In this document: in pieces, positions 3,689 to 64,000 of the stretch
How positions within the stretch are numbered: the first letter of the stretch is position 1
Layout of the letters: each line of letters opens with the position of its first letter
Virus genome (UHGV): UHGV-0125682
Length of the DNA: 64,000 bases
DNA from: a virus
Direction: 5' to 3' (one strand)
The notes under the pieces: model-generated
Told to the model about the DNA's origin: nothing
Databases searched by the model: none
Seen by the model: only the letters and a program-made list of their open reading frames with translations
Position numbers and translations under genes: made by a program

Positions 3689-3904
3689 TTCTTTTTCAAA
3701 TAATGAAACGCCGCGTGGATGCCATTTATTGCACAAGATAGAGTGCATTTATCGCGCGGCGCATCATCATTTGTTGATATGCGAATGTATCCAATAAGCA
3801 TATGTCTCCCTTGTATGCTAAGGATACGATCCTAGAAGATGTCCTGTAAGGAAATAACAAACTGACTAAGTTAGTGGCGCATTAGATGTTATTTCTGGAG
3901 GGGT

Positions 3905-4231
3905 ATGTTTGCAGATTATGAAAATCTGGCTGTAGTAGTCATAACATCCCTACTAAGTGGAACCGGCGTATTCCTTCTCGGAGTTAGAGACGGGCGCATT
4001 TCTGCGTCCCTGCTCAATCTTGCGAGTGAATTGTTTACTGCGGTAACAGCCGGGCTTGCGGGGTATGGGGTGGCGGTTAGCCAAGAATGGCCTGAAGGTA
4101 TCATTTTCTGCGTTGTTCTGATTGCCAGTAACAACGGTAGTGAAATTTTACAGGGCTTGAAGTCCAGAGCTAGTAACGTCTTGAATCTCTTAAGCGTAAT
4201 AGCGAATGGGGGAAAAGGTGGAGAGAAATAA
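3905..4231 (+). CDS. lydA: Holin-like small membrane protein (P1 LydA-like by size and position)
   Basis: 108 aa with hydrophobic segments and charged C-terminus; AT-rich; RBS GGAGGGG; follows invertase as in P1. Confidence 0.5.
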   Translation: MFADYENLAVVVITSLLSGTGVFLLGVRDGRISASLLNLASELFTAVTAGLAGYGVAVSQEWPEGIIFCVVLIASNNGSEILQGLKSRASNVLNLLSVIANGGKGGEK

Positions 4232-4677
4232 TGGGTAACTTTGGAAATTATTTCATTTTTATCATGGCATTTGTTGCCATCATTGACCGTTTCATTTTTC
4301 GTCGCAAGAGTGTTGAGATTTTGAGTATTGGTGACGCTGTAGTGAAAGAATCCGCTATAGCATTTCCTGTTTCGCTACGTGTTAAGCGAAGCTGGGTCAG
4401 CAATGCTCAAATCGAATATTGGTTGCAAGACCTGAAAAATCCATCTGTGGTTATTTCAGGGAAAACGCGACCAGTTGACGCCTCAAAACGCGGTGAGAGA
4501 GAAGAGTATTTGCTCATCGATACGAAATATCTTGAGCCAACGAAGTGGGATCTGAAAGTCACATTGACTAACGGTAACTGTCGACTGAATCCGCTTTATC
4601 GCATTTTCCCTATCAATGACTGCATAGAGCGCCAGTTTACGATCGAAAAGCGTGAAGGAGACTGGGATGTCAAATAA
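4231..4677 (+). CDS. lydB: Antiholin-like protein (P1 LydB-like by size and position)
   Basis: 148 aa, N-terminal TM; ATG overlaps upstream stop (TAATG). Confidence 0.4.
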   Translation: MGNFGNYFIFIMAFVAIIDRFIFRRKSVEILSIGDAVVKESAIAFPVSLRVKRSWVSNAQIEYWLQDLKNPSVVISGKTRPVDASKRGEREEYLLIDTKYLEPTKWDLKVTLTNGNCRLNPLYRIFPINDCIERQFTIEKREGDWDVK

Positions 4678-5287
4678 GAATAATTATGTTCTTCTTAATT
4701 ATGATGAGTTAAACGAAAAGGGGCTGTCAAAACTCGTCAAAGAAATCAGCAAAGGTGGTTACAAGATAGCGAGGGTGATCCCTGCAAGTAATGGCAGGAA
4801 GAAAGATGGGATCATGACGCGCACGTTTACCCTTATTGGTATTGATGAACAGACAATGGAAGTTCAGGTTAACGATACCGGTGATATATCTGGGATCAAA
4901 CTGAATGGTAAAACAGTACCGTTCAAGCCAGTAAAAACAATGTCGGCTTTGGGGCAATCTCTTGCGGCTTTATTTAATCGCGGAGCAACTTCTTTCCAGA
5001 AGTCATTAGCTCGAAAACTTGCTCGTGCAGCAAAAAATATTGATGACGGAAATAAGAAGCGGCAGGGAGTTAAATCTAACGCTCAGAAATTAGCTGAAGC
5101 GAAAGAATCACGTGATGCACTCCGTGAAGATATCGCTAATGCTAACGACAAACTGTCTAAACTCCAGAGCAAGTCAGACAAAGTAATGCAAGATACGGGT
5201 AACGTTAAAGCTGCCTTGTCTCAGGAAGTAGCTAAGACACGTGCTCTTAAAGAAGAAATCGCGCGCCTGGAGGATGAGCATGATTAA
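4667..5287 (+). CDS. hdf: Hdf-like coiled-coil protein (dar operon, by synteny)
   Basis: ~206 aa from ATG 4667 (RBS GAAGGAGA); coiled-coil C-terminus; precedes DarA-like gene. Confidence 0.4.
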   Translation: MSNKNNYVLLNYDELNEKGLSKLVKEISKGGYKIARVIPASNGRKKDGIMTRTFTLIGIDEQTMEVQVNDTGDISGIKLNGKTVPFKPVKTMSALGQSLAALFNRGATSFQKSLARKLARAAKNIDDGNKKRQGVKSNAQKLAEAKESRDALREDIANANDKLSKLQSKSDKVMQDTGNVKAALSQEVAKTRALKEEIARLEDEHD

Positions 5288-7205
5288 CAATCCTTTACGA
5301 ATTAATATTCAGTCTACTTTTGCTGATACGATCCCCGGCTATGTGCCAAGTCGCTGGTCTTCAGAAGAATTAAGCGAAGATGACCTGATTTTTGAGGCGG
5401 CGACCTTAGAAGATATTGAGCTTGCCTATATGGGCAATGAAATTCTGGTTGTGTCTGACGAAGCTATGTTTGAGTCCATAACTACAACCAGAATTCGGTT
5501 AGCTCAAACAATGCGAGCTTTCGTCCGTGCGCTGAATCGTGGCCTGAATGGTACGAATATTATGGCAGGGACTGATGAAGCCGGGACCGATGAAAATGGA
5601 CGTAATTGTATTGGTGGTGCGATTATCGGTCGTGTACGTCGGGTAGCTAATATCCCTGTTTTGACCGCGCAGATACCGCTTACTGACGGGCAGAGTACAA
5701 GCATAATTTTCCACTCTCCAACAGCTGACGGGGCAAAAATAAAGAGTAACGACGAGCTTGTTGCATTTCAGTTTTTACTTAATAAGCGTAACGTAACTCA
5801 CGTTGTCGCCCCGATTGGTGGGAGAGATGTTTCTTTAAGCCAGGTATGCCAGGCGCTATCTAATTTGATTGAGCGTAACAGCGAAAAATTTAAGAAAGCA
5901 AAAGAGCGCCAGGACAAAATGAAGGCAGATATTGAGAGTTATCTCAATGAAGCAGATAAACTGGCAGAAGAACGGTCAATAATGATTGATCAGGTGGACG
6001 TTGCGCAACGTGGGCTGACTGAAAAGCGTGCTGCTCTTACGGAGATGCAAAAAAAACTTGATGCCCAGAAAGCCATCAACGAGGAATTACAAGAAAAACG
6101 CGATAAATTGTTGTCTGCTAAAGGTGAAAAAACGAAGGAACGAGCGTTTAGTGACCAGCTGCGACATGTAAAACATAATCTTGCCATTGACGGAAAAACA
6201 GTGCTGGATAATGGCGCTGAAGTTAATTATATCACGTCCGGCAGTGACAATTTCGTTACGATAGTAGCACCTGAAGGTAAATTCAGTATTGATGCCAGTG
6301 CTGTCAAAGGAGGCAGTTTGGCAGATGCTGCAACCAAATTACTTAAAGCCTACCGAGAGCATAACGCAGATAAATATAAAGTTGATGTGTTACCAGGCCA
6401 GCAGGAAGACCCCGAACCACCACAGACAGACCCCGAGACGAACCCAGTATCACAACCAGAGAGCCAGGATGTAGGTAAATACCACTATGCACTTCAATCT
6501 CGCCCGGCTGGTGTTGGTGCTGTGCCGGATGGAAATAAAGCCGTGCTTGATCGTCCTGACCAGGCTGATCAGTATTACGAATATGCTCGTCACGGTATCA
6601 TTACGTATGACCGTAAACTGACAGATGAAGAAGTCAGCCAGTACGAGTTGCTCTATCTTCCTGATGAAGATGAGCTGAAAGATTTTGCAGGCCAATTGGT
6701 TGTGTCCAGCATGTCGAAACATATTGATGGCTATGTAGACCTGTTTGGCAGTGACCTGAAAACATTCAAGGCGCAAGTGAAAATTCTTTTCCGCAAAGCG
6801 TTTCCAAACGTGGCGTATCCACTTGGTGATGGGGAGAACCTTTTCATTATGGACGTGTATAACGCCCTTCAAAATCATTCAAGCGAAGTAAAAACAGAGC
6901 ATGTGGTTGAGCCGGAATCACAACCACAACCAGCACCAGAACAGGAGCCGGAGCCAGAAGAAGCTGGTGAATCAGCAAGTGAAGCTGATCAGGAGGCAGA
7001 TAAAGCACTGGAGTACCTGAAATCCGTGCCGGAGCAGTTTACATCCCGCGATCTGACGGTCATCAGTGCTGAACTTGATCATGTGCAGGAAGCAGCAAAC
7101 GCTCTAATCAGCGCAGGTCGATACGACGAGAACGAAGCCACTGTTGGTGCAGCAGTTGACTACCTGATCAACATTCTGGCTGAAATTCAGCAGGGAGGTG
7201 CTTAA
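5283..7205 (+). CDS. darA: DarA-like anti-restriction / capsid-internal protein
   Basis: ~640 aa; central coiled coil and acidic PE-rich linkers; size and order match P1 dar operon; no sequence motif independently confirms it. Confidence 0.45.
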   Translation: MNNPLRINIQSTFADTIPGYVPSRWSSEELSEDDLIFEAATLEDIELAYMGNEILVVSDEAMFESITTTRIRLAQTMRAFVRALNRGLNGTNIMAGTDEAGTDENGRNCIGGAIIGRVRRVANIPVLTAQIPLTDGQSTSIIFHSPTADGAKIKSNDELVAFQFLLNKRNVTHVVAPIGGRDVSLSQVCQALSNLIERNSEKFKKAKERQDKMKADIESYLNEADKLAEERSIMIDQVDVAQRGLTEKRAALTEMQKKLDAQKAINEELQEKRDKLLSAKGEKTKERAFSDQLRHVKHNLAIDGKTVLDNGAEVNYITSGSDNFVTIVAPEGKFSIDASAVKGGSLADAATKLLKAYREHNADKYKVDVLPGQQEDPEPPQTDPETNPVSQPESQDVGKYHYALQSRPAGVGAVPDGNKAVLDRPDQADQYYEYARHGIITYDRKLTDEEVSQYELLYLPDEDELKDFAGQLVVSSMSKHIDGYVDLFGSDLKTFKAQVKILFRKAFPNVAYPLGDGENLFIMDVYNALQNHSSEVKTEHVVEPESQPQPAPEQEPEPEEAGESASEADQEADKALEYLKSVPEQFTSRDLTVISAELDHVQEAANALISAGRYDENEATVGAAVDYLINILAEIQQGGA

Positions 7206-7573
7206 TGACCATCTCTGTTTTAGACCGCCTGAAATTAGGTAAAGAGCTATCAGATCTAATGCAGGCGCAGAAAACGGCGCCAGTATTGCAACGCGTCACC
7301 ATTGGTAAGCAGATTGTTGATGTGATGCTGAAATTGGGCTTGGGGACTGCCGCGCAACCGGCAGCGGAACCGCAACAACAGACTGATCCTGTTGTAGATG
7401 AAGTTCCTAAGATAGTGACTGACTTCCTGGGCGGTGTGTTCACAAAGTCCACACAAATGGAATTTATTGATGCGCTGCGTGGGATCTCAAACTATGTTGG
7501 CGAGTTCCTTACGTTGGAACAGGCAAAAGAGCAGACCATAAGCTGGGTGAAAGCCAACGGTTATGCAGGGTAA
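7205..7573 (+). CDS. ddrA: DdrA-like small protein
   Basis: 122 aa; ATG overlaps darA stop; synteny only. Confidence 0.35.
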   Translation: MTISVLDRLKLGKELSDLMQAQKTAPVLQRVTIGKQIVDVMLKLGLGTAAQPAAEPQQQTDPVVDEVPKIVTDFLGGVFTKSTQMEFIDALRGISNYVGEFLTLEQAKEQTISWVKANGYAG

Positions 7574-7666
7574 TCAAAGGGGCTGAAATGCCCCTTTCAC
7601 TTTCCTGTAAGTCCATAAATCACACACTTTTTACACTTCCTGCTTTCTATGTAAGGGGAGTGTATT

Positions 7667-10600
7667 TTGAACAAGTCAGTTACTTCCGCGCTATCCGAAG
7701 CAGCAGACATTAACAGTGTTATTGCGCTGGTTTCTTCATTAGAGAGGCGAGAAACACGCCAGGGGCGCAGTAGTTACGTAGTCACCAGTAAAGGGGCAGA
7801 GGTAAAGACGGCTTTTAAGGTCGTTGATGCCAGCAGTCTGATCATTTCGAACAACCTTGACGGTACGATTAATCCGGCCTTCCCGGAAGAACTCCAGCCA
7901 CGTGACCGTACACGGCTATCAAGCAAACTCCAGGTTAACCGTATTGCCTCCAATTTACGCCCGGCACAATTAACGGATTCCGGCATGAGCAGCCACGGAG
8001 CGCCGATAGTTGGTCCGGACAACGTTGTTGAATCCGGCAACGGAAGGAGCATGGGTATCTGGCGTGCCTATGAGCAAGGGCAGGCGGATGAATATCGCCA
8101 GTACCTGATCGATCATGCAAAAGAGTTTGGTCTGAATCCTGACGACATTTCACAAATGTCTATGCCCGTATTGGTGCGAGAAAGACTCACAGATGTAGAC
8201 CGCGCACAATTTGCCCGCGATTCAAACATCAGCGATCTGCAAGAGATGGCTGCAAGTGAAAAAGCGTATGCGGATGCGCAATTTCTCACTGAGAGCGTCA
8301 TGGCGCTATTTAATCCTTCAGATGATGGAAATCTACTGGCGCGGTCCAATGATGCGTTTATTCGTGCGTTTTTGCGCGAAATAGGTGATACGGCGACGGC
8401 AGGTTTGCTTACTGCCGATGGGCGTCCAACGAAACAACTTATCGACCGCATCCAGAATGCAATTTTTGCCAAAGCGTACAAGGATGAAAGGCTTGTTCGG
8501 CTGGTGGCGGAAGAGCCAGATCCGGAAATGCGTAACATTCTTACCGCATTAAATACGGCAGCCAGCGATTTTGCGCAAATGCAGTCGCTTTCAGGTGATG
8601 TTCACCATGACACGGTAACCGGACTGGTAGACGGTATAGAGCAATTGAATGGTCTGGATAAACAGGCTATTGCCGCGCTACAGGAAGCAATTAACCTTGT
8701 TCGTGAAGCAAAAGATAACGGTCAGGCAGTAGAAGAGGTGATCGCACAGCGTGGATTGTTTGGAGATAGCACTCCGGAAGCAGAAGCGCTTGCTCTGTTT
8801 ATTGTTGCCAACAACCGAAGCGCTAAGCGAATGGGGGCAGCTTTCAAGAAACTGGCGCAAAAAATTAACGATGAACTTATTCACCAGCAACAAGCGTTAG
8901 GCGATATGTTCGGCGGCGGAGATGTCGATCTGCGTAGCATTTTATCTGCCGTTTCTGATGAAATTGAGGCTGAGTATGGCGAAGGTAAAGGGCTTAATTT
9001 CGCCATGTTTGAATCGGTTTCAGGAGAGGTCGAACCATACATTTCAAAGCTAATTGCTGATGCGACCAGCGTGGAGGACTTGATCCGAATCGTGAAGGTG
9101 TCAGAAAAAATTAAGGAGTCCGCAAAAAAAATAAAGCGCAATGTATTTTTGGAACTTGGTTTTTATATTCGCAATGTCACCGTTAATGAGATTAAGGAGT
9201 GGGCTAAACGTTATGGATACAGCGACGCTGTGTTAACAACGATGTTATTGTCTTATCAACGCAGCAATTTTTATGCTAACGCACTGCGTGACGCGATTGA
9301 AAAAGGAGATGAAGCTCCTTCGCTCGCAGATGAAAGAAATATTGATTGTGATATTGAAACGTTTTGCAACATATCAGAAGAAGGCGTGCCCGCTGAACAA
9401 TTTATACGTGTTTTACATAATGCAGCAAAACATATTCCTGATGACTTTAGTATTGATGAATTGCGCAATGGTTGTCTTGTTTGGTTAGGTAACTATTTAA
9501 AATCTCCAGCGTCTATTGCAGAGAAAACAGCTTTAAGATTTAGAAAGGAAATGAATAAAGCTGGAAGCGCAGAAGAGATGGTGTGCATAATCCAAAATAC
9601 TTTGAAGTTATTCAAAAAGAGCTTGCATAATATCGACGATATTATGGCGGCTGGTAGGAAAATAACAGCCAGTGTCGGAGTTAGCTCTGAACTAACGGCA
9701 GAGGAGATCGCTGATGCGTATATTGAGACACTTGTCAGGCTTAAGGAGATAGTGGAATTAGCAGAGCATTCCTCATATTACGGAATCAAGGAGCGTGTTG
9801 ACTTTACTATAGAACAAATCAATAAAGTTAGGTCAAATAAGGAAAAACTCACTGACTACCTTGCTGATGTTTTGCACCAGAATGATCATGGGATTGGATA
9901 TGATCTGAAAAAAATGCTTGTTTTTAATCTGGACATACCGGAAGACTTGCAAGCAGAACTATATGAAATAGCTTCATTAACACGTGGACAAAAAGCCTAT
10001 CCTAATGCGCTTGAAAATGTAGTACATAAAAAAGTCAGAGCCGCATTTGACATGATTCTTGAATCGTCAAATGTGTCACATGACCAGTCTAAGGAATGGA
10101 GTCGTGGGATTGCTATTTCTGATGAAGCAGAGCAGTTAAGTGGTCACGATAATGAAACTTTCTCCCGTAAAGCATACAGTATTCGCGAGACGATTGAAAA
10201 AGCCTATATTATTTCAGGAGGGACTTTATCTACATTAAAAAATATTAACCACAAGAACAATGTTCGTGCTTTTGCAAGTCGAAATGGGAATATAACAATT
10301 GATGCTAATAGTGATCACGAGCGTGTATTATGGCATGAAATAGGTCACCATATAGAACATTCAAATCCCCATCTATTGGAGAGGGCCAAAGCCTTCATTA
10401 AATCAAAAACTAACGGTAAAGTTTCTTATCATAATATTGGTAGCCGTGGCAGTGCTGAGTATTTGGTGCGAACCGACCTAAGTCATGGATATATGTCTAA
10501 AATTTATATGGAAAATACGGTAAGTTCTGTCAGCGGCAGATTTATATCAAAGCCACCTGCATTAAGCAATTGCAGGGCGACTGAGATTTTTTCTATGGCC

Positions 10601-10708
10601 TTGCAGATGTATGCCGATCCGGAGCAGGCGACTAACTCTGTATTAAACAATGACGGCGTGCTGGAATTTTTCTTGGGATGTATGAAGGAGTTGCAAAATG
10701 AAGTATAG
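7667..10708 (+). CDS. ddrB: DdrB-like large protein with C-terminal HExxH (putative Zn-metallopeptidase) motif
   Basis: 1013 aa; TTG start with RBS AAGGGGAG; C-terminal half AT-rich; motif LWHEIGHHIEH near aa 880. Confidence 0.45.
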   Translation: MNKSVTSALSEAADINSVIALVSSLERRETRQGRSSYVVTSKGAEVKTAFKVVDASSLIISNNLDGTINPAFPEELQPRDRTRLSSKLQVNRIASNLRPAQLTDSGMSSHGAPIVGPDNVVESGNGRSMGIWRAYEQGQADEYRQYLIDHAKEFGLNPDDISQMSMPVLVRERLTDVDRAQFARDSNISDLQEMAASEKAYADAQFLTESVMALFNPSDDGNLLARSNDAFIRAFLREIGDTATAGLLTADGRPTKQLIDRIQNAIFAKAYKDERLVRLVAEEPDPEMRNILTALNTAASDFAQMQSLSGDVHHDTVTGLVDGIEQLNGLDKQAIAALQEAINLVREAKDNGQAVEEVIAQRGLFGDSTPEAEALALFIVANNRSAKRMGAAFKKLAQKINDELIHQQQALGDMFGGGDVDLRSILSAVSDEIEAEYGEGKGLNFAMFESVSGEVEPYISKLIADATSVEDLIRIVKVSEKIKESAKKIKRNVFLELGFYIRNVTVNEIKEWAKRYGYSDAVLTTMLLSYQRSNFYANALRDAIEKGDEAPSLADERNIDCDIETFCNISEEGVPAEQFIRVLHNAAKHIPDDFSIDELRNGCLVWLGNYLKSPASIAEKTALRFRKEMNKAGSAEEMVCIIQNTLKLFKKSLHNIDDIMAAGRKITASVGVSSELTAEEIADAYIETLVRLKEIVELAEHSSYYGIKERVDFTIEQINKVRSNKEKLTDYLADVLHQNDHGIGYDLKKMLVFNLDIPEDLQAELYEIASLTRGQKAYPNALENVVHKKVRAAFDMILESSNVSHDQSKEWSRGIAISDEAEQLSGHDNETFSRKAYSIRETIEKAYIISGGTLSTLKNINHKNNVRAFASRNGNITIDANSDHERVLWHEIGHHIEHSNPHLLERAKAFIKSKTNGKVSYHNIGSRGSAEYLVRTDLSHGYMSKIYMENTVSSVSGRFISKPPALSNCRATEIFSMALQMYADPEQATNSVLNNDGVLEFFLGCMKELQNEV

Positions 10709-10991
10709 CATTGTGAGTCCCGCTGGGATTAGAGGGATTGTTGAATGCTCTGATGACGGCACATTGCGTATATTTGAAGGCGATATTTCGGAAGAAAATA
10801 TTGCGCAAGATTTACGCTTTATCAACACAAATTCCGCAATGGGGATCGTGAATACCATTCATGCCGATGGGGTGTTTGTTCTGCGGAGCCTGGAAACTGT
10901 TGGCTGGGAGGTTGAGTGGCCAGAGGTGGAAGGAGATCCTGACGACGAAGACGATACTGGCGAATCATATCAAGACATTGATGTGAATTGA
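10698..10991 (+). CDS. Hypothetical acidic protein (overlaps ddrB end)
   Basis: 97 aa ORF; ATG at 10698; followed by terminator. Confidence 0.4.
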   Translation: MKYSIVSPAGIRGIVECSDDGTLRIFEGDISEENIAQDLRFINTNSAMGIVNTIHADGVFVLRSLETVGWEVEWPEVEGDPDDEDDTGESYQDIDVN

Positions 10992-11004
10992 TATGATTGA
11001 TAAT

Positions 11005-11027
11005 CCCGCCGTCAGGCGGGTTTTTTT
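11005..11027. terminator. Rho-independent terminator between convergent genes
   Basis: CCCGCC-GTCA-GGCGGG followed by TTTTTTT. Confidence 0.75.
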
Positions 11028-11289
11028 AGCGTGGTGTAAGAATAAATTCAGGATGCTCTCCAGCAAGCAATAACAGGTACTCAAATTCACCAGCCATAAG
11101 GCGTCTCGGTTTATTTCTATCTTCTTTGAATTGCCAAGCCCGGAGTTGATACCCCATTTTGTGGGCTAACTCCGTTTGCGTTAGCCCCATTCGCTGGCGG
11201 ATTTCAATTATAGTTTCCGGGGTGTTTGGTGGGAGTTGTTTCACAATATGCCCTTTGCCAATGCTGTGATTCGCAACGAAGTATATCAT
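11026..11289 (-). CDS. hxr: XRE-family HTH regulator (P1 Hxr-like)
   Basis: 87 aa; ...IRQRMGLTQTELAHKMGY... helix-turn-helix. Confidence 0.55.
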   Translation of the reverse strand: MIYFVANHSIGKGHIVKQLPPNTPETIIEIRQRMGLTQTELAHKMGYQLRAWQFKEDRNKPRRLMAGEFEYLLLLAGEHPEFILTPR

Positions 11290-11301
11290 CGTTGAATCGA
11301 T

Positions 11302-11604
11302 TCACAGAGCTGCGCCGAATAGACCGCAGCATGGCATCCCTTCATCACAGTACCTGGCCCATTCTTTTTGGCATTCTTCTGTTTGCGCGTATTGGCTTAA
11401 CGCGTCATCCAGCATATCCCAGGCCTTATAGGAATCCTCTGCAACGCTAAACAAAGTCCTGCCTTCCCGGCTTAGAATTTGCAGATTGTAAATGTTTTCA
11501 TTGCTCAGACATGCGCGGCTGATATGCATGTAAACCGACCATGCAGGAACTCGATTTTTGATAGCAAGTTGGTGTAATTTGGAATTAATTAAAGAGCTTT
11601 TCAT
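11302..11604 (-). CDS. Hypothetical protein
   Basis: ~100 aa from ATG preceded by GGAGAAA; Cys-rich C-terminus. Confidence 0.4.
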   Translation of the reverse strand: MKSSLINSKLHQLAIKNRVPAWSVYMHISRACLSNENIYNLQILSREGRTLFSVAEDSYKAWDMLDDALSQYAQTEECQKEWARYCDEGMPCCGLFGAAL

Positions 11605-11787
11605 GGGATTTCTCCGCAGCAAAGTGGTCAACTTTTTCAATCTTAATGCGCACAATGTGCATATTCAAGTTTTATTCTTCACTTTGTTACGAGAGGGGCC
11701 AGCCAATATTTCTAGTTGAAAAGATCCATCATCAAAAATCACATACTGATTATGCTGCCGCAAACTGAAAACATTTCGCGGTGACTC

Positions 11788-13470
11788 ATGGCAACGAAAG
11801 ACAAAAACAAAGGCTTTCTGTCGGCATTGAAGAAAGCCTTCAACAGTGGCGATGTCACGCCTGCCGATCCGGTCGTTTTTACGAGCGGTCATAGTGTCGT
11901 TGCGCGTTCTGGTCTGTCCGCTTTACGTCCGGGGATACTGGGTGGCAATAGCGATGGCATGACAAGCGCGGCAGATACAGTATCAATTTCGGCAGAACTG
12001 CCCGGCGACCGCCTGCAAAAGTACAACATCCTGGAAACGATGGCTAAAAGCCCGACTATCTCGACGGCTTTAAATATTCACATTGCACATGCGCTTGCGC
12101 CTTCAAAAAAAACCGGACAAGCATTCATCCTTTCGCCAAAGGATGGTTCCGATGCCGAGGCAGTAAGTAGATGTGAAGAGTTAACCGCTGATTTGGGGAC
12201 GATGATTAATGACGGACTTCCTTCATGGGCCATGATTATGGCGATCTTTGGGGTGTCTTATGTCCGACCTTATGCTGAACAGGGCAGGGGGATAACAGGC
12301 ATTGAGTCCAGTTATTACACTCTGCCACACTTCGTCCAGGAGTTTTATCGTGGTAGCCAGCTGGTAGGTTTCAGTGGTGATTACATTCTGGATACGCATA
12401 GTTTGCGCAGAGTAATAACCGAACCGTGGAATCTGGTTTCCATGAAAAATCCCTATTGGACGCCACAGCATAAAGTTATTCCGGTTAGCTACGGCACAAA
12501 AGGGTACTCACTGTTAAGTGATCAGGCTGATAAGCCGTTAATGGAGACGCAGAATTACGGAACTTCATTCCTGGAATACAGCTATGAACCTTACCTTAAT
12601 TTATGTGCTTCGCTCGCCGCGCTGAAATCAACGCGAAATAATGCAGCCAAAATTGACCGCCTGATTGCTCTTACGACGAACACACTGGACCCGGTTAATG
12701 CGGCGAACTATACGCGTGGCGTCAGCCAGGCATTGAAGCGTCATAGTGACCTGGTGGCGCAAAGGTCGATTAATGCCAACGCTATTCCGACTGTGCTTAA
12801 CCATCTGATACCTGTTATGGGAGACGGGAAGAACGGCATCACCATTGATACGCAATCCATACCCGCAGATATCAGTGGTATCGAAGACGTTATGTTTCAC
12901 CTCCGGCAGCTTGCTGCAAGCCTCGGCATTGACGCAACAATGCTTGGCTGGGCTGATCAGATGAGCGGAGGGCTTGGAGAAGGCGGCTGGCAGCAAACTG
13001 CTATCCAGGCTGCATTGCGTGCGAACTGGATCAGACAGGCCGCCCAGCGAACTATTTATCGGCTTCTGGACATTCACCTCGCTTATAAATACGGCAAGGT
13101 TTACACCGAAACAAACCGCCCTTATGACGTGCAATTCAACTCAATGAACACAGCTATCCAGGAAGAGGAAAACCGAGAACTGGATGCACGCGCCAACTTT
13201 GTTGCTGTCATCTCCCAAATTATGGACCAGATCCAGAACAACCCGAAACTGGCTGGTAGTGACGCGTTTATGCGTTATCTGTTCACCGAGCAGTTGCACA
13301 TCGACGATGACACTCTCAACACCATGATCAAAGAGTTTAAGGCGAATGAATCAGAGCAAAACAGCGAGCATGGTATGTACGAATCCGCGCCGTTGTCGTC
13401 CGGTGACGATCCGGAAAACTGGACGCCAGAACAGTTAATAAACTTTGCAAAATTTGTGATGAGCAATTAA
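11788..13470 (+). CDS. Putative virion morphogenesis protein (possibly portal, P1 Prt-like by size)
   Basis: 560 aa ORF; assignment by size and neighbourhood only. Confidence 0.35.
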   Translation: MATKDKNKGFLSALKKAFNSGDVTPADPVVFTSGHSVVARSGLSALRPGILGGNSDGMTSAADTVSISAELPGDRLQKYNILETMAKSPTISTALNIHIAHALAPSKKTGQAFILSPKDGSDAEAVSRCEELTADLGTMINDGLPSWAMIMAIFGVSYVRPYAEQGRGITGIESSYYTLPHFVQEFYRGSQLVGFSGDYILDTHSLRRVITEPWNLVSMKNPYWTPQHKVIPVSYGTKGYSLLSDQADKPLMETQNYGTSFLEYSYEPYLNLCASLAALKSTRNNAAKIDRLIALTTNTLDPVNAANYTRGVSQALKRHSDLVAQRSINANAIPTVLNHLIPVMGDGKNGITIDTQSIPADISGIEDVMFHLRQLAASLGIDATMLGWADQMSGGLGEGGWQQTAIQAALRANWIRQAAQRTIYRLLDIHLAYKYGKVYTETNRPYDVQFNSMNTAIQEEENRELDARANFVAVISQIMDQIQNNPKLAGSDAFMRYLFTEQLHIDDDTLNTMIKEFKANESEQNSEHGMYESAPLSSGDDPENWTPEQLINFAKFVMSN

Positions 13471-13483
13471 CCGGAGGGAAATA

Positions 13484-14482
13484 ATGCAATCACTGAATAC
13501 TGTTACGGATCGCTTCTCCCTGGTAGAGAAAATCCGCAAACACACACCGCAGAACAACCGAAATTACGTCATTCAGTCGGTACGAGACACATTCAACTCG
13601 CCAGAAACAAAAGAGCGTATCGCGCTGGGTGAGATGTATGGTTATTACGGTCATGGTCGCCGGGCGATGCACTATAACAAAACGAAAAGCCTGAACTTGC
13701 CGGAAGTCTCTGTTGTGATGGTAGATGGGAAGCCTGTTGTATTGGAGAACGTGCCGTCAAACAGGACTATCGACATTTCGATTGACGACAACGGCATTGT
13801 TACTCATACGCAGGAAATACTGGATACAGACACCGGGCGTATTGTTCAGGGCATGATTAATTCTGGTGCTGGTGGTTGGTCGTGGGCTACATCTGGTCCA
13901 GATTCATCGGTATCCCTGGTAAAGTCTTTCCACGGCTTTGATTACGTAACTGTGCCTAACTATATCAGCCTCGACAAGAAAAGCCTGATGCTTGAATCAG
14001 CAGAAGAGCGCGATGCGGCTATTCATGCAGCACTTATCGAACAAGGTTTTACCGATAACGCTGCTACGGATCTGGTTCACCACTTTTCAGCAATGAAAAA
14101 TCAGCAAGCCATGCTCGAATCTGCACATCGTGAAGCCCTGGAATCAGAATTGATGCTCCTTGAAGTGGAAAACATACAGCTTCGAGATAAGCTGCGCGCT
14201 CAAACAGCGATGATGGAAAGCCAGGGGGAAAATGCAAAGCAATGCCGCCGGATTTTGCGTGACGCTATCCAGGAAATGCCTGTTTTTATCAGCGCAGAAC
14301 AGCGCCGGGCGCTCTGCCGTATGCAGTCTGAAGATGATGCCCGCATAGTGGCTGCGATGCTTGAATCTCTTGGGGCAAATGCTACTTATGGCTTACCGGT
14401 ATCAGGCAAGAAAGAACCAGAGTTATCACCGAAGGAGAACAAAAACACCACCCCGTTACTCTTCGTTTCCAGAAGGGGGTAA
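13484..14482 (+). CDS. Putative head maturation protease/scaffold (P1 Pro-like by size)
   Basis: 332 aa with C-terminal coiled coil; immediately after preceding gene. Confidence 0.3.
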   Translation: MQSLNTVTDRFSLVEKIRKHTPQNNRNYVIQSVRDTFNSPETKERIALGEMYGYYGHGRRAMHYNKTKSLNLPEVSVVMVDGKPVVLENVPSNRTIDISIDDNGIVTHTQEILDTDTGRIVQGMINSGAGGWSWATSGPDSSVSLVKSFHGFDYVTVPNYISLDKKSLMLESAEERDAAIHAALIEQGFTDNAATDLVHHFSAMKNQQAMLESAHREALESELMLLEVENIQLRDKLRAQTAMMESQGENAKQCRRILRDAIQEMPVFISAEQRRALCRMQSEDDARIVAAMLESLGANATYGLPVSGKKEPELSPKENKNTTPLLFVSRRG

Positions 14483-60598: not shown

Positions 60599-61781
60599 TT
60601 TCCTGAAAAACCAGGACGGGCGCTATATCACTGACGGTCTGTCCTCTAAGGACTTCACGCGTTTATTCGACCTTATCAGGAAAGAACAAACCCGTAAGCG
60701 CCGACAAGCTCACCGGACGCTGACGCCAGGCAGACTTAGGAACAAATCCGCCGAAGATATTCTCAAGTTAGGGAAGAAAAAAGGCGGCACGTTCTTTACG
60801 CGAGACGATCTGAAAGGCTTCGAAAAGCTACGGAGTAAAACGCGCGAAAAATATGACAGCAAGACGGCTGGCATCACATACGCCCAGCTGGTGGCATCCA
60901 GCCAGGCTATCGATATTAAGCGTGCAAATAACGCCGTGGATGACGGATCTGGTATCAAAAGAGCTACACCCGTATCTCTTCGCCACAATGTGATTAATAT
61001 CCGCGTAGAAGCATCGGATATATCCGTCCACCAGCACCATATCGTCCGGATACGCTTTGAAGAATGGGATCAGATGGTTGATGATATCGCAGAAGACGAT
61101 AAATCAGCTCTCAAAATCACTAAATCACTGTGCGCCGGGCGAGTGTCTTTCGATTGTGACTGTGGTCGTCATCAATACTGGTATCGTTACATCGCCACTG
61201 CGGGTAACTTTGCCCTGGCACCGCCAAAAGAATACGCCTATCCAAAAGTTCGCAACCCGAAGCTGCAAGGCGTCGCCTGTAAACACGTGATCCACTCAAT
61301 GACGCGGTTACAGTCCGCCAGTTGGCAAATGAGTATTGCTCGTGCGCTACAAAAGGCTGCAACGCAAATTGCATTTGGTGACGATCGCCGCCGTACAACC
61401 AAACACTTCTCAAAAGAAGACGAGAAGGAGTTTAATCGCAATCGTAGCAGTAAAACGAACGTTGACGCTGCCAAGCGAGAATGGAGGCTCTATCAGAAGC
61501 GCCAGGCCGCTTTAAGCACAAAACTGGCAAAGGACAACGGCAAGATTGACAAGCTACGTGACCAACTGACCAAGGCCAGAAAGTTGTCAGACGCACAGAA
61601 AAAACGGGCGGCAGCAAAAGAAGCGGCGTTGCAACGTGAGAAACAGAAAAACAAGGAGCTTCAGCAACGCCTGGCCGATCAGTTCGCACTGAAGAAGCAG
61701 GCGTTCATTGATGCGCTTGTCATGGCTGGAACACCACCAGCACAAGCTGAAAAAATGTTCATGGAGTACATAAAAAATTAA
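60591..61781 (+). CDS. Hypothetical K/R-rich protein with SWIM-like CxC...CxH zinc-finger motif
   Basis: 396 aa; ...FDCDCGRHQYWYRY...GVACKHVIH...; basic coiled-coil C-terminus. Confidence 0.5.
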   Translation: MPDFLKNQDGRYITDGLSSKDFTRLFDLIRKEQTRKRRQAHRTLTPGRLRNKSAEDILKLGKKKGGTFFTRDDLKGFEKLRSKTREKYDSKTAGITYAQLVASSQAIDIKRANNAVDDGSGIKRATPVSLRHNVINIRVEASDISVHQHHIVRIRFEEWDQMVDDIAEDDKSALKITKSLCAGRVSFDCDCGRHQYWYRYIATAGNFALAPPKEYAYPKVRNPKLQGVACKHVIHSMTRLQSASWQMSIARALQKAATQIAFGDDRRRTTKHFSKEDEKEFNRNRSSKTNVDAAKREWRLYQKRQAALSTKLAKDNGKIDKLRDQLTKARKLSDAQKKRAAAKEAALQREKQKNKELQQRLADQFALKKQAFIDALVMAGTPPAQAEKMFMEYIKN

Positions 61782-61783
61782 CA

Positions 61784-61808
61784 AAGGTGGGTTTATCCCA
61801 CCTTTTTA
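61784..61808. terminator. Bidirectional rho-independent terminator
   Basis: AAAGGTGGG-TTTATC-CCACCTTT flanked by A- and T-runs, between convergent genes. Confidence 0.7.
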
Positions 61809-62524
61809 TTAGCATCGCATTTAATTTTTTCAAGTGAATCAGAAAGCTTTGAGAGAAGCTCCTCAAGTGTTTCCCTGTCATTTGTATCACCCGAACGAAA
61901 AGATGAGTTTTTCACGGCGGTAAAAAATTCATAAAAATCATCCACCGAATTTAAGCTCTCACCTTTCTCTCTATATAATTTAATAATATGAATGATATCG
62001 CTATCCACACATTCAATCTGTTTCCTAATTTCTTTAAGCCGTTTTTCTAATGATTCAAGTTCTTCTTCTTGTTCAATATACTTTTTAACGTCTCTCTGCT
62101 TCTTAATGGCTTTCTTAATATCACTGTTAATTGTCCTTATTTGTTCTTTTTTATTTGCAATTTCATCTATTTTTCTTAATTTAGCATATAATGTGCTTGT
62201 CACCAAAGAAATTAACAGGGTTAACAGTGGCGCTAATATTGATGCCACAACACCATAAATAAAAGGCAAAACAAAATGAGCTACGAACGATGGTAAAAAA
62301 AGATTCCCCAATAATGGGATCTTTTCCCCGACAAACACTATAGATAATGTATACATAACATCATCTTTTGACTTCAGTAATATAAATATGTCTCGCCAAT
62401 TAGAAATTAAAAACGAAATAAAAATGTAGGCAAAAACCTTATTAAACAACTTATCTTTTACAGCATCTTCTAACAGATTTTGGGTAGAGGAGTTTTCCTT
62501 TTCTATTGATGAATCAGCGCTCAT
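61793..62524 (-). CDS. AT-rich membrane protein with C-terminal coiled coil
   Basis: 243 aa; hydrophobic helices in residues ~30-110, then K/E-rich heptads; markedly lower GC than neighbours. Confidence 0.55.
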   Translation of the reverse strand: MSADSSIEKENSSTQNLLEDAVKDKLFNKVFAYIFISFLISNWRDIFILLKSKDDVMYTLSIVFVGEKIPLLGNLFLPSFVAHFVLPFIYGVVASILAPLLTLLISLVTSTLYAKLRKIDEIANKKEQIRTINSDIKKAIKKQRDVKKYIEQEEELESLEKRLKEIRKQIECVDSDIIHIIKLYREKGESLNSVDDFYEFFTAVKNSSFRSGDTNDRETLEELLSKLSDSLEKIKCDANKKVG

Positions 62525-62555
62525 ATAATTACCAAATATTTAAACATTGATTTTA

Positions 62556-62580
62556 TGTAAAAGCGGTCATCCAGACCGCA
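62556..62580 (-). terminator. Rho-independent terminator downstream of higA
   Basis: Minus strand GCGGTC-TGGAT-GACCGC followed by TTTT. Confidence 0.6.
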
Positions 62581-62584
62581 AAAC

Positions 62585-62944
62585 TTAAACACCAACCAGA
62601 CTTTCCAGTGGAATACCAAACTGGGCATGTAAACGACGAATCATAGGTAACGTCAAATTTCGTGTCCCATTAAGCACTTCGTAAACACGGTTTGACTTAC
62701 CAATTGCCGGTTCCAGATCCTTCACGGTCAGCCCTTGCTGTTCCATACGGAATTTAATGGCCTCAATAGGTGATGGTGGCTCAATTGGGTAATGTTTTTT
62801 CTCGTACTCCTCAATGAGAAGACACATGACCTCAAAGAAATCACCTTCCGGGGTGTTCATTTCCGGTTCGTTATCGAACATCGGTTCGACCGCACGCAGT
62901 GCGGCCTCATAATCTTGTTCTGTACGGATAGGTTTAATGTTCAT
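62585..62944 (-). CDS. higA: HigA-type antitoxin (XRE HTH)
   Basis: 119 aa; C-terminal HTH ...LTVKDLEPAIGKSNRVYEVLNGTRNLTLPMIRRL...; directly downstream of HigB-like toxin. Confidence 0.75.
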   Translation of the reverse strand: MNIKPIRTEQDYEAALRAVEPMFDNEPEMNTPEGDFFEVMCLLIEEYEKKHYPIEPPSPIEAIKFRMEQQGLTVKDLEPAIGKSNRVYEVLNGTRNLTLPMIRRLHAQFGIPLESLVGV

Positions 62945-62947
62945 GAT

Positions 62948-63250
62948 TTACTCCAGTTCTATTGTATCCGCTTCAATGGCATCGTATTCCTTATGTGTTC
63001 CAATAAACTTAACGAACATCCATCCTCGCTGATAAGCAATTGCGACAATTAACCTGTAATCATTTCCCTTAATATTGAACACCACGCGCCTGTTTTTAAG
63101 GATGCTGGCTGTCCGGTACTGTTCTTTGATCTCAGCCGGATTTTTCCAGTCAGCCTTTGTTGCTTCATCAACCCATGCCTTTAATGGCTGTTCTGCATCG
63201 GGATTCTTCGCCCAGAAATCCCTTAGTGTTTTTACCGAAATTATTTTCAT
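62948..63250 (-). CDS. higB: HigB-type toxin (RelE/ParE superfamily)
   Basis: ~100 aa from MKIISVKTLRDFW...; ...FVKFIGTHKEYDAIE... resembles HigB GTHKEYD motif; RBS GAAGGA. Confidence 0.75.
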   Translation of the reverse strand: MKIISVKTLRDFWAKNPDAEQPLKAWVDEATKADWKNPAEIKEQYRTASILKNRRVVFNIKGNDYRLIVAIAYQRGWMFVKFIGTHKEYDAIEADTIELE

Positions 63251-63280
63251 CACAGATTCCTTCTCTCTGAAAGCAGAGTA

Positions 63281-63326
63281 GTCCCAATATGGGACAATGT
63301 AAAGCACTTTAGTCCCATGCTGGGAT
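63281..63326. promoter_or_regulatory. Twin palindromic operators upstream of higB
   Basis: GTCCCAATATGGGAC and GTCCCATGCTGGGAT, 31 bp apart. Confidence 0.55.
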
Positions 63327-63395
63327 ATGAATTGAAATCACAATCTCCAGACAATGCACCCTCGATACCTGATAAATCGACCTTTGAGGATGCTT

Positions 63396-64000
63396 ATGGG
63401 CCGTTTTGACGAATGGTTTTCTGACGATGCAAACCTGGCAAGTAAGGAGTCAGAACATGACAGCACGCAGAGAGAAACGCCAGCGCCGATTGAAGCGAAT
63501 GCAGGAGGCGCGCCGGAACATGGCAATACCAGTTCGGATTCATTCAGCATTCTGGAAGAGCAACCCGCCGCCAAAGCTGATAGCCATGATAATTTTGCTG
63601 ATAGCAACGGTGGCCTTACTCCAGATGCTGGCGAATCAGATATAGCCATACTTCCACCTTCCCTGGCTGGCAGAGAACCAACTCCACAGCTAAAAGCACG
63701 CTATAACGGGCATAAAGCCTTTAACGACCAAATCCGCGCAGACTGGATGCTGATTATTGAATCCAGCCCAGACGCGTTTCAGGCTCTCTTATATCGACCA
63801 GATGTTGGCACATATGGGGTAGTCAGCGACGAAACAGGAGAAGAGTCATTCACTGAACTGGATAACAACCAGCGCGAACTGACTTACCAGGAACCTGAAA
63901 TCGTTTATGTGCTGGATAACCCGGACGGGCGTGACTCTTTCCATGCGATTGACGCAGACGGTGAGCAGGATGGCTTAACCGATGATGTTCTGATTCTGCG
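63396..64000 (+). CDS. Hypothetical acidic protein, 3'-partial (runs off window; not in ORF track)
   Basis: ATG at 63396, open for 201 codons to window end; divergent from higB. Confidence 0.5.
   Translation, partial: MGRFDEWFSDDANLASKESEHDSTQRETPAPIEANAGGAPEHGNTSSDSFSILEEQPAAKADSHDNFADSNGGLTPDAGESDIAILPPSLAGREPTPQLKARYNGHKAFNDQIRADWMLIIESSPDAFQALLYRPDVGTYGVVSDETGEESFTELDNNQRELTYQEPEIVYVLDNPDGRDSFHAIDADGEQDGLTDDVLIL

Follow-up and report, generated by a model that had tools for sequence, protein, structure and literature searches.

Does a DdrB-like protein of a phage dar operon carry a protease, and if so, where did the protease come from and what would it cut? The question is raised by UHGV-0125682, a viral sequence of 64,000 nucleotides (nt; "the window" below means this full stretch), in which a 1013-amino-acid (aa) product of a dar-like operon joins an N-terminal half of ordinary GC content to an AT-rich C-terminal half containing an HExxH motif. 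We identify the window, from its sequence, as a D6-like phage-plasmid of the P1 family and the gene as the DdrB orthologue of its dar operon. The C-terminal domain has a zincin fold in which the putative catalytic residues are strictly conserved, and it lies in a mosaic part of the locus that appears to be exchanged among related elements. We put slightly better than even chances on a reading in which this domain is an active zinc peptidase that mainly cuts DdrB itself. Residue numbers refer to the 1013-aa product, and the parts of the gene on which the argument depends are as follows.

7667..10708, plus strand: ddrB orthologue, 1013 aa, TTG start (from the list of open reading frames [ORFs] and its translation)
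7667..9012, plus strand: conserved N-terminal half (aa 1 to 448), 95.5% nucleotide and 97.8% amino acid identity to D6 DdrB
7790..8185, plus strand: DdrB-like ParB superfamily domain (aa 42 to 173), Pfam PF18763, E = 1e-41, 142 bits against a cutoff of 27.6
9011..10003, plus strand: all-helical middle region (aa ~449 to 780), 22 to 34% identity between lineages, the least conserved part
10004..10705, plus strand: zincin-like metallopeptidase (MPTase) domain, aa ~780 to 1013
10334..10348, plus strand: HEIGH (H890, E891, and H894), on the helix of aa 885 to 899 (DSSP helix 111 to 125 of the structure model)
10355..10357, plus strand: E897, an acidic position three residues past HExxH (Glu in 157 of 158 sequences, Asp in one)
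10583..10585, plus strand: E973 within ATEIFSMALQ, where the next conserved helix begins; candidate for the third zinc ligand (Glu in 79 of 80 sequences, Asp in one)

The DdrB orthologue and its break in composition

The ddrB product is 100% identical to a "hypothetical protein" of the Escherichia coli plasmid NZ_CP035876, and the surrounding genome is 96 to 98% identical to that of phage D6 (by blastn, 96.4% over window positions 3767 to 9012 and 97.7% over 11736 to 13500). The operon lydA-lydB-hdf-darA-ddrA-ddrB is collinear with the D6 and P1 annotations, with an hxr homologue overlapping the ddrB stop, so its initial annotation as dar-like holds. Each half of the protein matches PHROG 2299, the family of P1 DdrB (E = 3e-247 and 9e-199, covering family positions 9 to 440 and 443 to 994 of 995), and a MAFFT alignment is collinear from end to end with P1 DdrB and with gp116 of Cronobacter phage JK004. 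Orthology to DdrB thus follows from the DdrB-ParB domain, the PHROG match over both halves, the full-length alignment, and the shared operon order. The TTG start is the one annotated for ddrB of phage D6, and a Shine-Dalgarno-like AAGGGGAG lies 7 nt 5' of it. Farther upstream, the 93-nt spacer between ddrA and ddrB (12 nt in P1) holds a stem-loop, AAAGGGGC-tgaaat-GCCCCTTT, at ~7577 to 7598; no T-run follows it, and a consensus terminator scan did not flag it.

In every pair of lineages compared, the N-terminal half is by far the best conserved stretch of the dar operon. It retains 62 to 90% amino acid identity, against 31 to 52% for lydB, hdf, darA, and ddrA in distant pairs, which suggests that this part of ddrB (window 7667 to 9010) is under unusually strong constraint. 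A GC profile confirmed the fall from a GC-normal first half (49%) to an AT-rich second half (39%): GC content is 0.494 over nt 1 to 1344 of the gene and 0.388 to 0.394 over the remainder, GC at third codon positions (GC3) is 0.46 in the N-terminal half and 0.35 in the C-terminal half, and GC3 at four-fold degenerate sites is 0.477 and 0.329, respectively. The window has a mean GC content of 0.478, and just 0.8% of its 1695-nt segments are as AT rich as the ddrB C-terminal half. The sole other stretch of this kind is at ~61000 to 63500, where the lowest 1695-nt GC content (0.375) is found in the segment starting at 61751.

The C-terminal metallopeptidase-like domain

The sequence LWHEIGHHIEH was confirmed at aa 888 to 898 of the 1013-aa ORF, with HExxH (HEIGH) at aa 890 to 894 (nt 10334 to 10348). 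By itself the motif is weak evidence, since chance alone would put a bare HExxH into ~4% of proteins with the same length and composition; it stands above chance because it is conserved across homologues. Word-indexed homologue searches were very insensitive for the AT-rich allele (2, 1, and 12 matches). A profile search of 1.84 billion cluster representatives retrieved 597 relatives at E ≤ 1e-3, 163 of them at E ≤ 1e-10. We aligned 160 retrieved sequences, representatives of clusters at 50% identity, and counted each residue as conserved over covered sequences. H890 and E891 are present in 156/156 and H894 in 157/157; outside the motif, E931 is kept in 147/150, Y942 in 150/151, and Y947 in 149/152, while K945 is Lys in 141/151 and Arg in 9 more. 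The domain thus has the signature HExxHxxE ... E ... YxxKxY ... TExxSM. H890, E891, H894, E897, E931, Y942, Y947, and E973 are also invariant among seven DdrB alleles that share just 39 to 56% identity with one another. A histidine in strand 2 (H862) belongs to the DdrB subgroup only and is found in 17/151 sequences family-wide.

A structure model of aa 775 to 1013, built with 11 sequences, has a mean pLDDT of 88 and a pTM of 0.86. It places HEIGH on a long helix (aa 885 to 899) within a region of pLDDT > 90 and E973 at the start of a later helix (aa 974 to 983; model residues 200 to 209), and a β-rich insert of ~79 residues separates HExxH from this candidate Glu ligand. The fold of the domain resembles solved zincins overall. 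In the model and the alignment, the HExxH helix, the conserved tyrosines, and the Glu of a later helix fit the active site of a gluzincin, a pattern that argues strongly against a dead fold. The helical middle region (aa ~449 to 780) gave no specific structural match. The metallopeptidase-type site proposed in the initial annotation is therefore borne out by the model as to fold and as to HExxH on a helix, while curated sequence models are silent: no Pfam model, the one for the MPTase of polyvalent proteins included (which we take to be PF18818, "MPTase-PolyVal"), detects the zincin clade of the window. Peptidase_M78 (ImmA/IrrE, COG2856) did not match in Pfam scans either.

Two groups of known peptidases invite comparison. 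The first is the MPTase of polyvalent proteins (Iyer et al. 2017, PMC5512222), which likewise has two conserved helices, HExxH lying on the first and a Glu on the later one, with a variable insert between them and an acidic residue at position +3, although this residue is Glu in the window clade and Asp in the published description. It also occurs in multidomain proteins associated with phage heads, together with DdrB-ParB, MuF, and InPase domains. Relatives of the window domain are paired with DdrB-ParB, with InPase and DdrB-ParB, or with Phage_Mu_F minor-head-protein modules, which are the polyvalent-protein architectures of the same study (PMC5512222). The second group comprises M34-type gluzincins (anthrax lethal factor [LF] and PPEP-1/2/3) and also MtfA, to which the window domain has 9 to 14% sequence identity; M34 peptidases are secreted, whereas DdrB would be cytoplasmic or internal to the capsid. 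Sequence-level homology to MEROPS M34 was not found, and no Protein Data Bank (PDB) chain was matched by sequence or profile.

The domain is not special to the window protein, nor would it be an unusual payload, as the initial annotation had supposed. In tblastn searches with aa 449 to 1013, DdrB of P1, P7, SJ46, and RCS47 matched at ~31% identity (~40% over the last 226 aa; E = 2e-40 for P1), JK004 gp116 matched at 32% over 99% of the query, and the C-terminal half is 39% identical to a Leclercia plasmid protein. The motifs W-H-E-x-G-H-H-x-E and A/S-T-E-x-F-S-M-A-L-Q are kept in every long form in the multiple alignment. P1 DdrB, JK004 gp116, and the Leclercia homologue carry the entire C-terminal half with its HExxH. 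P1 DdrB, named at the outset as the protein to compare, therefore does contain the same domain, and the protease fold is present in it rather than missing. The P1 reference record describes ddrB as "unknown protein function; possible metallopeptidase" (GenBank, 2004), and phage JL22 has the annotation "putative metallopeptidase." The zincin-like MPTase domain at the C terminus of P1 DdrB was explicitly identified by Iyer et al. (2017, PMC5512222), who found MPTase to be the commonest domain of packaged and injected polyvalent proteins. Thus, the zincin domain and its probable role were foreseen for P1 DdrB in 2004 and 2017, and this is no new kind of system.

P1 DdrB (YP_006491, 995 aa) also shares with the window protein its operon position after ddrA and before an overlapping hxr, the order of a ParB-like N-terminal half, helical middle, and C-terminal HExxH domain, membership in PHROG 2299, and the motifs WHExGHHxE and ATExFSMALQ. 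It differs in sequence (65% identity in the N-terminal half, 17 to 26% in the middle, and 41% in the MPTase), in the GC content of the C-terminal half (47%, compared with 39% in the window), and in context, since the genome around the window gene is D6-like and not P1-like. A 372-aa protein of a Logan assembly (P0008) joins tail-fiber-like repeats to the last ~155 aa of a P1-type DdrB, HExxH included; this could be a true rearrangement or a chimera created during assembly.

An exchangeable module of ddrB and hxr

The break in composition coincides with the end of similarity to D6. By blastn and junction alignment, homology to D6 stops at 9012 and restarts at 11736, and the sequence in between forms a cassette.

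9013..11735: mosaic cassette absent from D6 (C-terminal half of ddrB, hxr, a terminator, and two minus-strand ORFs)
10698..10991, plus strand: hxr homologue, 97 aa with an acidic tail, last gene of the operon, overlapping the ddrB stop by 11 nt (PHROG 2292, E = 2e-39)
11005..11027, plus strand: intrinsic terminator-like hairpin, CCCGCC-GTCA-GGCGGG followed by seven T's, just 3' of hxr
11026..11289, minus strand: 87-aa XRE/helix-turn-helix (HTH)-type regulator ORF (PHROG 7950 "transcriptional repressor," E = 4e-6; weak Pfam HTH_3; XRE family in RefSeq)
11302..11655, minus strand: 117-aa ORF with no Pfam or PHROG family

DdrB of phage D6 (orf25, 454 aa) is 97.8% identical to the window protein over its first 448 aa and meets a stop codon seven codons past the end of homology. 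It has neither the helical region nor the MPTase, and no hxr. DdrB proteins of this short type end 2 to 13 codons past the junction, and their slot contains a DUF4145 gene and orf23 or nothing at all. Plasmid pLD93-1 resembles D6 (454-aa DdrB, then the DUF4145 gene and orf23), while a Shigella flexneri plasmid (461-aa DdrB) and an Escherichia fergusonii plasmid (450-aa DdrB) have the portal gene directly downstream; short forms of 450 to 461 aa in these four elements thus come with three different downstream arrangements. D6 orf24 and orf23 were considered as diverged remnants of the C-terminal half or of hxr and rejected, as they show no similarity to them and fall in different PHROGs. The slot between ddrB codon ~448 and the portal gene (window 9013 to 11787; 10347 to 11509, 5887 to 5950, and 4354 to 4434 in our loci L001, L005, and L009, respectively) is a variable hotspot of D6-like phage-plasmids, empty in S. 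flexneri and E. fergusonii and holding a DUF4145 gene and a 110-aa ORF in D6 and pLD93-1. Its breakpoints differ by a few codons (ddrB nt 1325 versus 1346 to 1349) and are therefore attributable to independent events.

The long form is the rarer one in this group. Among 118 plasmids matched by megablast with the N-terminal half, 4 carry it, and in the other 114 the match stops at nt ~1325 to 1349. Of 5426 complete E. coli genomes, 6 have the 2.7-kb cassette at ≥98.9% identity, each time on a plasmid. Outside the group, a long, three-part ddrB accompanied by hxr is present in P1, JK004, Leclercia, a Logan metagenomic contig, and a Hafnia metagenome-assembled genome (MAG), which with the window makes six deeply diverged lineages. 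Because P1 DdrB, JK004 gp116, and the Leclercia homologue all have the whole C-terminal half, HExxH included, we take the long architecture to be the ancestral or general state and the short D6-type protein to be the variant.

Comparison of P1 with JK004 shows where exchange would take place. The two are 59 to 90% identical in lydB, hdf, darA, ddrA, and the N-terminal half of ddrB, but their identity drops to 31% for the middle region of ddrB, 44% for the MPTase, and 47% for Hxr. It is because gene-by-gene identities collapse there that we regard the C-terminal half and hxr as exchanged together. From these comparisons, the two appear as an optional, exchangeable, and fast-diverging module that has been lost or replaced in D6-like elements, and the compositional break in the window is best interpreted as a recombination junction at the linker between domains (aa 442 to 450, codon ~448).

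The hxr gene follows this pattern closely. In all six long-form lineages (6/6) it encodes 97 to 102 aa with an acidic tail and overlaps the ddrB stop by 11 to 17 nt (in the other long-form loci, L002 7220 to 7528, L003 7631 to 7921, L004 6679 to 6969, L006 6574 to 6876, and L007 1494 to 1787), and the two short-form loci checked lack it (D6 as judged by comparison of proteins, S. flexneri by annotation). Window Hxr is 43 to 50% identical to Hxr of P1, JK004, Leclercia, the Logan contig, and the Hafnia MAG. Since hxr is strictly linked to long ddrB, a functional partnership with the protease module is suggested, and Hxr may be a partner or an inhibitor of that module. None of the six Hxr homologues has an HTH or XRE signature, and Hxr has no match in the PDB, which contradicts the P1 annotation "possible repressor; homolog of Xre." A scheme in which Hxr is an XRE repressor cut by the protease, as in ImmA/ImmR, was rejected on two counts, namely, the lack of an HTH signal in Hxr and the lack of a Peptidase_M78 match. 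The proteins detected in P1 virions do not include Hxr, but for so small a protein this is weak evidence. As for the two minus-strand ORFs of 87 and 117 aa, neither has a counterpart in the P1 and D6 loci examined, and they may form a small regulatory or toxin-antitoxin-like pair.

Role and origin of the protease module

In the mechanism that we favor, DdrB would be a capsid-internal component of the Dar anti-restriction system, a "polyvalent" protein, whose C-terminal zincin domain would be catalytically competent. Acting in cis or on neighboring copies, DdrB would cleave itself while the head is assembled or afterward, and its ParB-containing part would thereby come apart from the protease module, as proposed for P1 DdrB (Iyer et al. 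2017, PMC5512222). P1-like phages swap or lose the C-terminal half together with the translationally coupled hxr at the inter-domain linker. Autoprocessing is favored because of this proposal, that the MPTase autoprocesses DdrB, and because of the packaged P1 form of ~76 kDa (~700 aa) cited with it (PMC5512222). Packaging and processing of DdrB are known from P1 only, whose virion proteome lists it as a head protein, with 39 peptides and 59.5% coverage. The P1 gene is non-essential, with a single reported role ("aids DarB addition to capsid"), and D6-like elements naturally do without the protease module, so any role that it has is accessory.

Several points weigh against this mechanism. For aa 781 to 1013 there is no Pfam family even at E ≤ 10 and no NCBIfam family for the C-terminal domain, and searches of PDB sequences with the C-terminal half (phmmer) and with a 22-sequence family profile (hmmsearch) gave chance matches only. 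For the third metal ligand, E897 and E931 are as well conserved as the candidate E973. P1 DdrB may also be processed not by its own domain but by Pro, the prohead protease that trims DarA and the major capsid protein as well. Finally, natural short forms mean that a phage-plasmid is viable without the protease module, which fits autoprocessing but also any other accessory role.

A possible though clearly less probable alternative is that the MPTase is an injected effector, as full-length DdrB or as a C-terminal fragment, that cleaves a host defense protein such as a component of type I restriction-modification or BREX, with Hxr as its inhibitor or chaperone. The option of host-protein targets for MPTases was explicitly left open by Iyer et al. 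(2017, PMC5512222), and LF and PPEP, whose folds come nearest, are secreted endopeptidases with other proteins as substrates. The C-terminal half and Hxr are swapped as a unit and diverge far more quickly than the genes around them, and the long form shows strict linkage and translational coupling to hxr; neighboring genes, however, co-transfer whatever their function. Hxr is also missing from the P1 virion proteome, although non-detection of a small protein counts for little. The reported role of the non-essential ddrB is DarB loading only, many D6-like elements do without the module, and a ~76-kDa packaged form would exclude most of the protease domain if it is the N-terminal fragment that is retained. 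A more elaborate form of this idea, to which we give somewhat less credence, takes the C-terminal half and Hxr as an effector/partner cassette by analogy with polymorphic toxin-immunity modules, in which an injected anti-defense protease would have lineage-specific targets and Hxr would be its cognate inhibitor or chaperone. If so, the 22 to 50% identity between alleles, against up to 90% in the flanks, and the repeated loss in D6-like elements would be the record of an arms race.

It is similarly doubtful that the domain acts in trans in the procapsid, on DarB, Ulx, or DarA or as an assembly factor, with Pro cutting DdrB. The listed role of DdrB in adding DarB to the capsid fits such a function, as do the ordered loading of the Dar proteins and the processing of DarA and the major capsid protein at maturation, and a T4-like prohead protease gene lies nearby (window 13484 to 14482). 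Short-form D6-like elements nevertheless encode a large DarB, so DarB loading cannot strictly need the protease. Far less probable still is that the zincin fold has lost catalysis and persists as a scaffold, structural or metal-binding, given that pseudo-enzymes normally lose HExxH, whereas the H, E, and H are kept in 100% of the 156 to 157 diverged representatives and four more polar or aromatic positions are conserved at ≥97%.

Equally remote is the possibility that a foreign protease domain was joined recently and de novo to a DdrB-like protein of the window element; the initial annotation had taken the break to suggest a domain acquired by fusion. The case for a recent fusion consists of the sharp change in homology and composition at 9012/9013 relative to D6, the AT-rich C-terminal half (four-fold GC3 of 0.33 versus 0.48), the predominance of the short form among N-half matches (114/118), and the want of a known donor closer than 43 to 59% identity, which is the identity of the nearest relatives. 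Against it stands the three-part architecture with hxr in six deeply diverged lineages. In addition, window and Leclercia are 34 to 50% identical in the C-terminal half and 42 to 52% in the rest of the operon, in line with what vertical descent predicts. GC content also falls in the C-terminal half in every lineage examined (window,.494 to.39; Leclercia,.556 to.47; P1,.522 to.47; JK004,.566 to.53), most steeply in the window. Because all four share the lower GC, composition alone does not show a recent fusion, and we rejected the GC break as sole proof of horizontal acquisition. At most, a short-form lineage would have re-acquired a homologous module by recombination, which makes no new domain combination. 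What the window does carry is a rare, strongly diverged, AT-rich allele of the C-terminal half/hxr module, and two origins fit it, namely, an old allele retained or a homologous module re-acquired by recombination from an unsampled, AT-richer relative.

What is new in this locus is modest and consists of the rare AT-rich allele, the C-terminal half and hxr as an exchangeable and optional module, and a zincin clade without a curated sequence model. The window (with the protease and hxr module) and D6 and many plasmids (without it) amount to a natural experiment, and because these near-isogenic D6-like phage-plasmids exist in both forms, their virion content and restriction evasion are directly comparable. 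If the domain is active, it would bear on what DdrB does and on how internal head proteins are trimmed and released.

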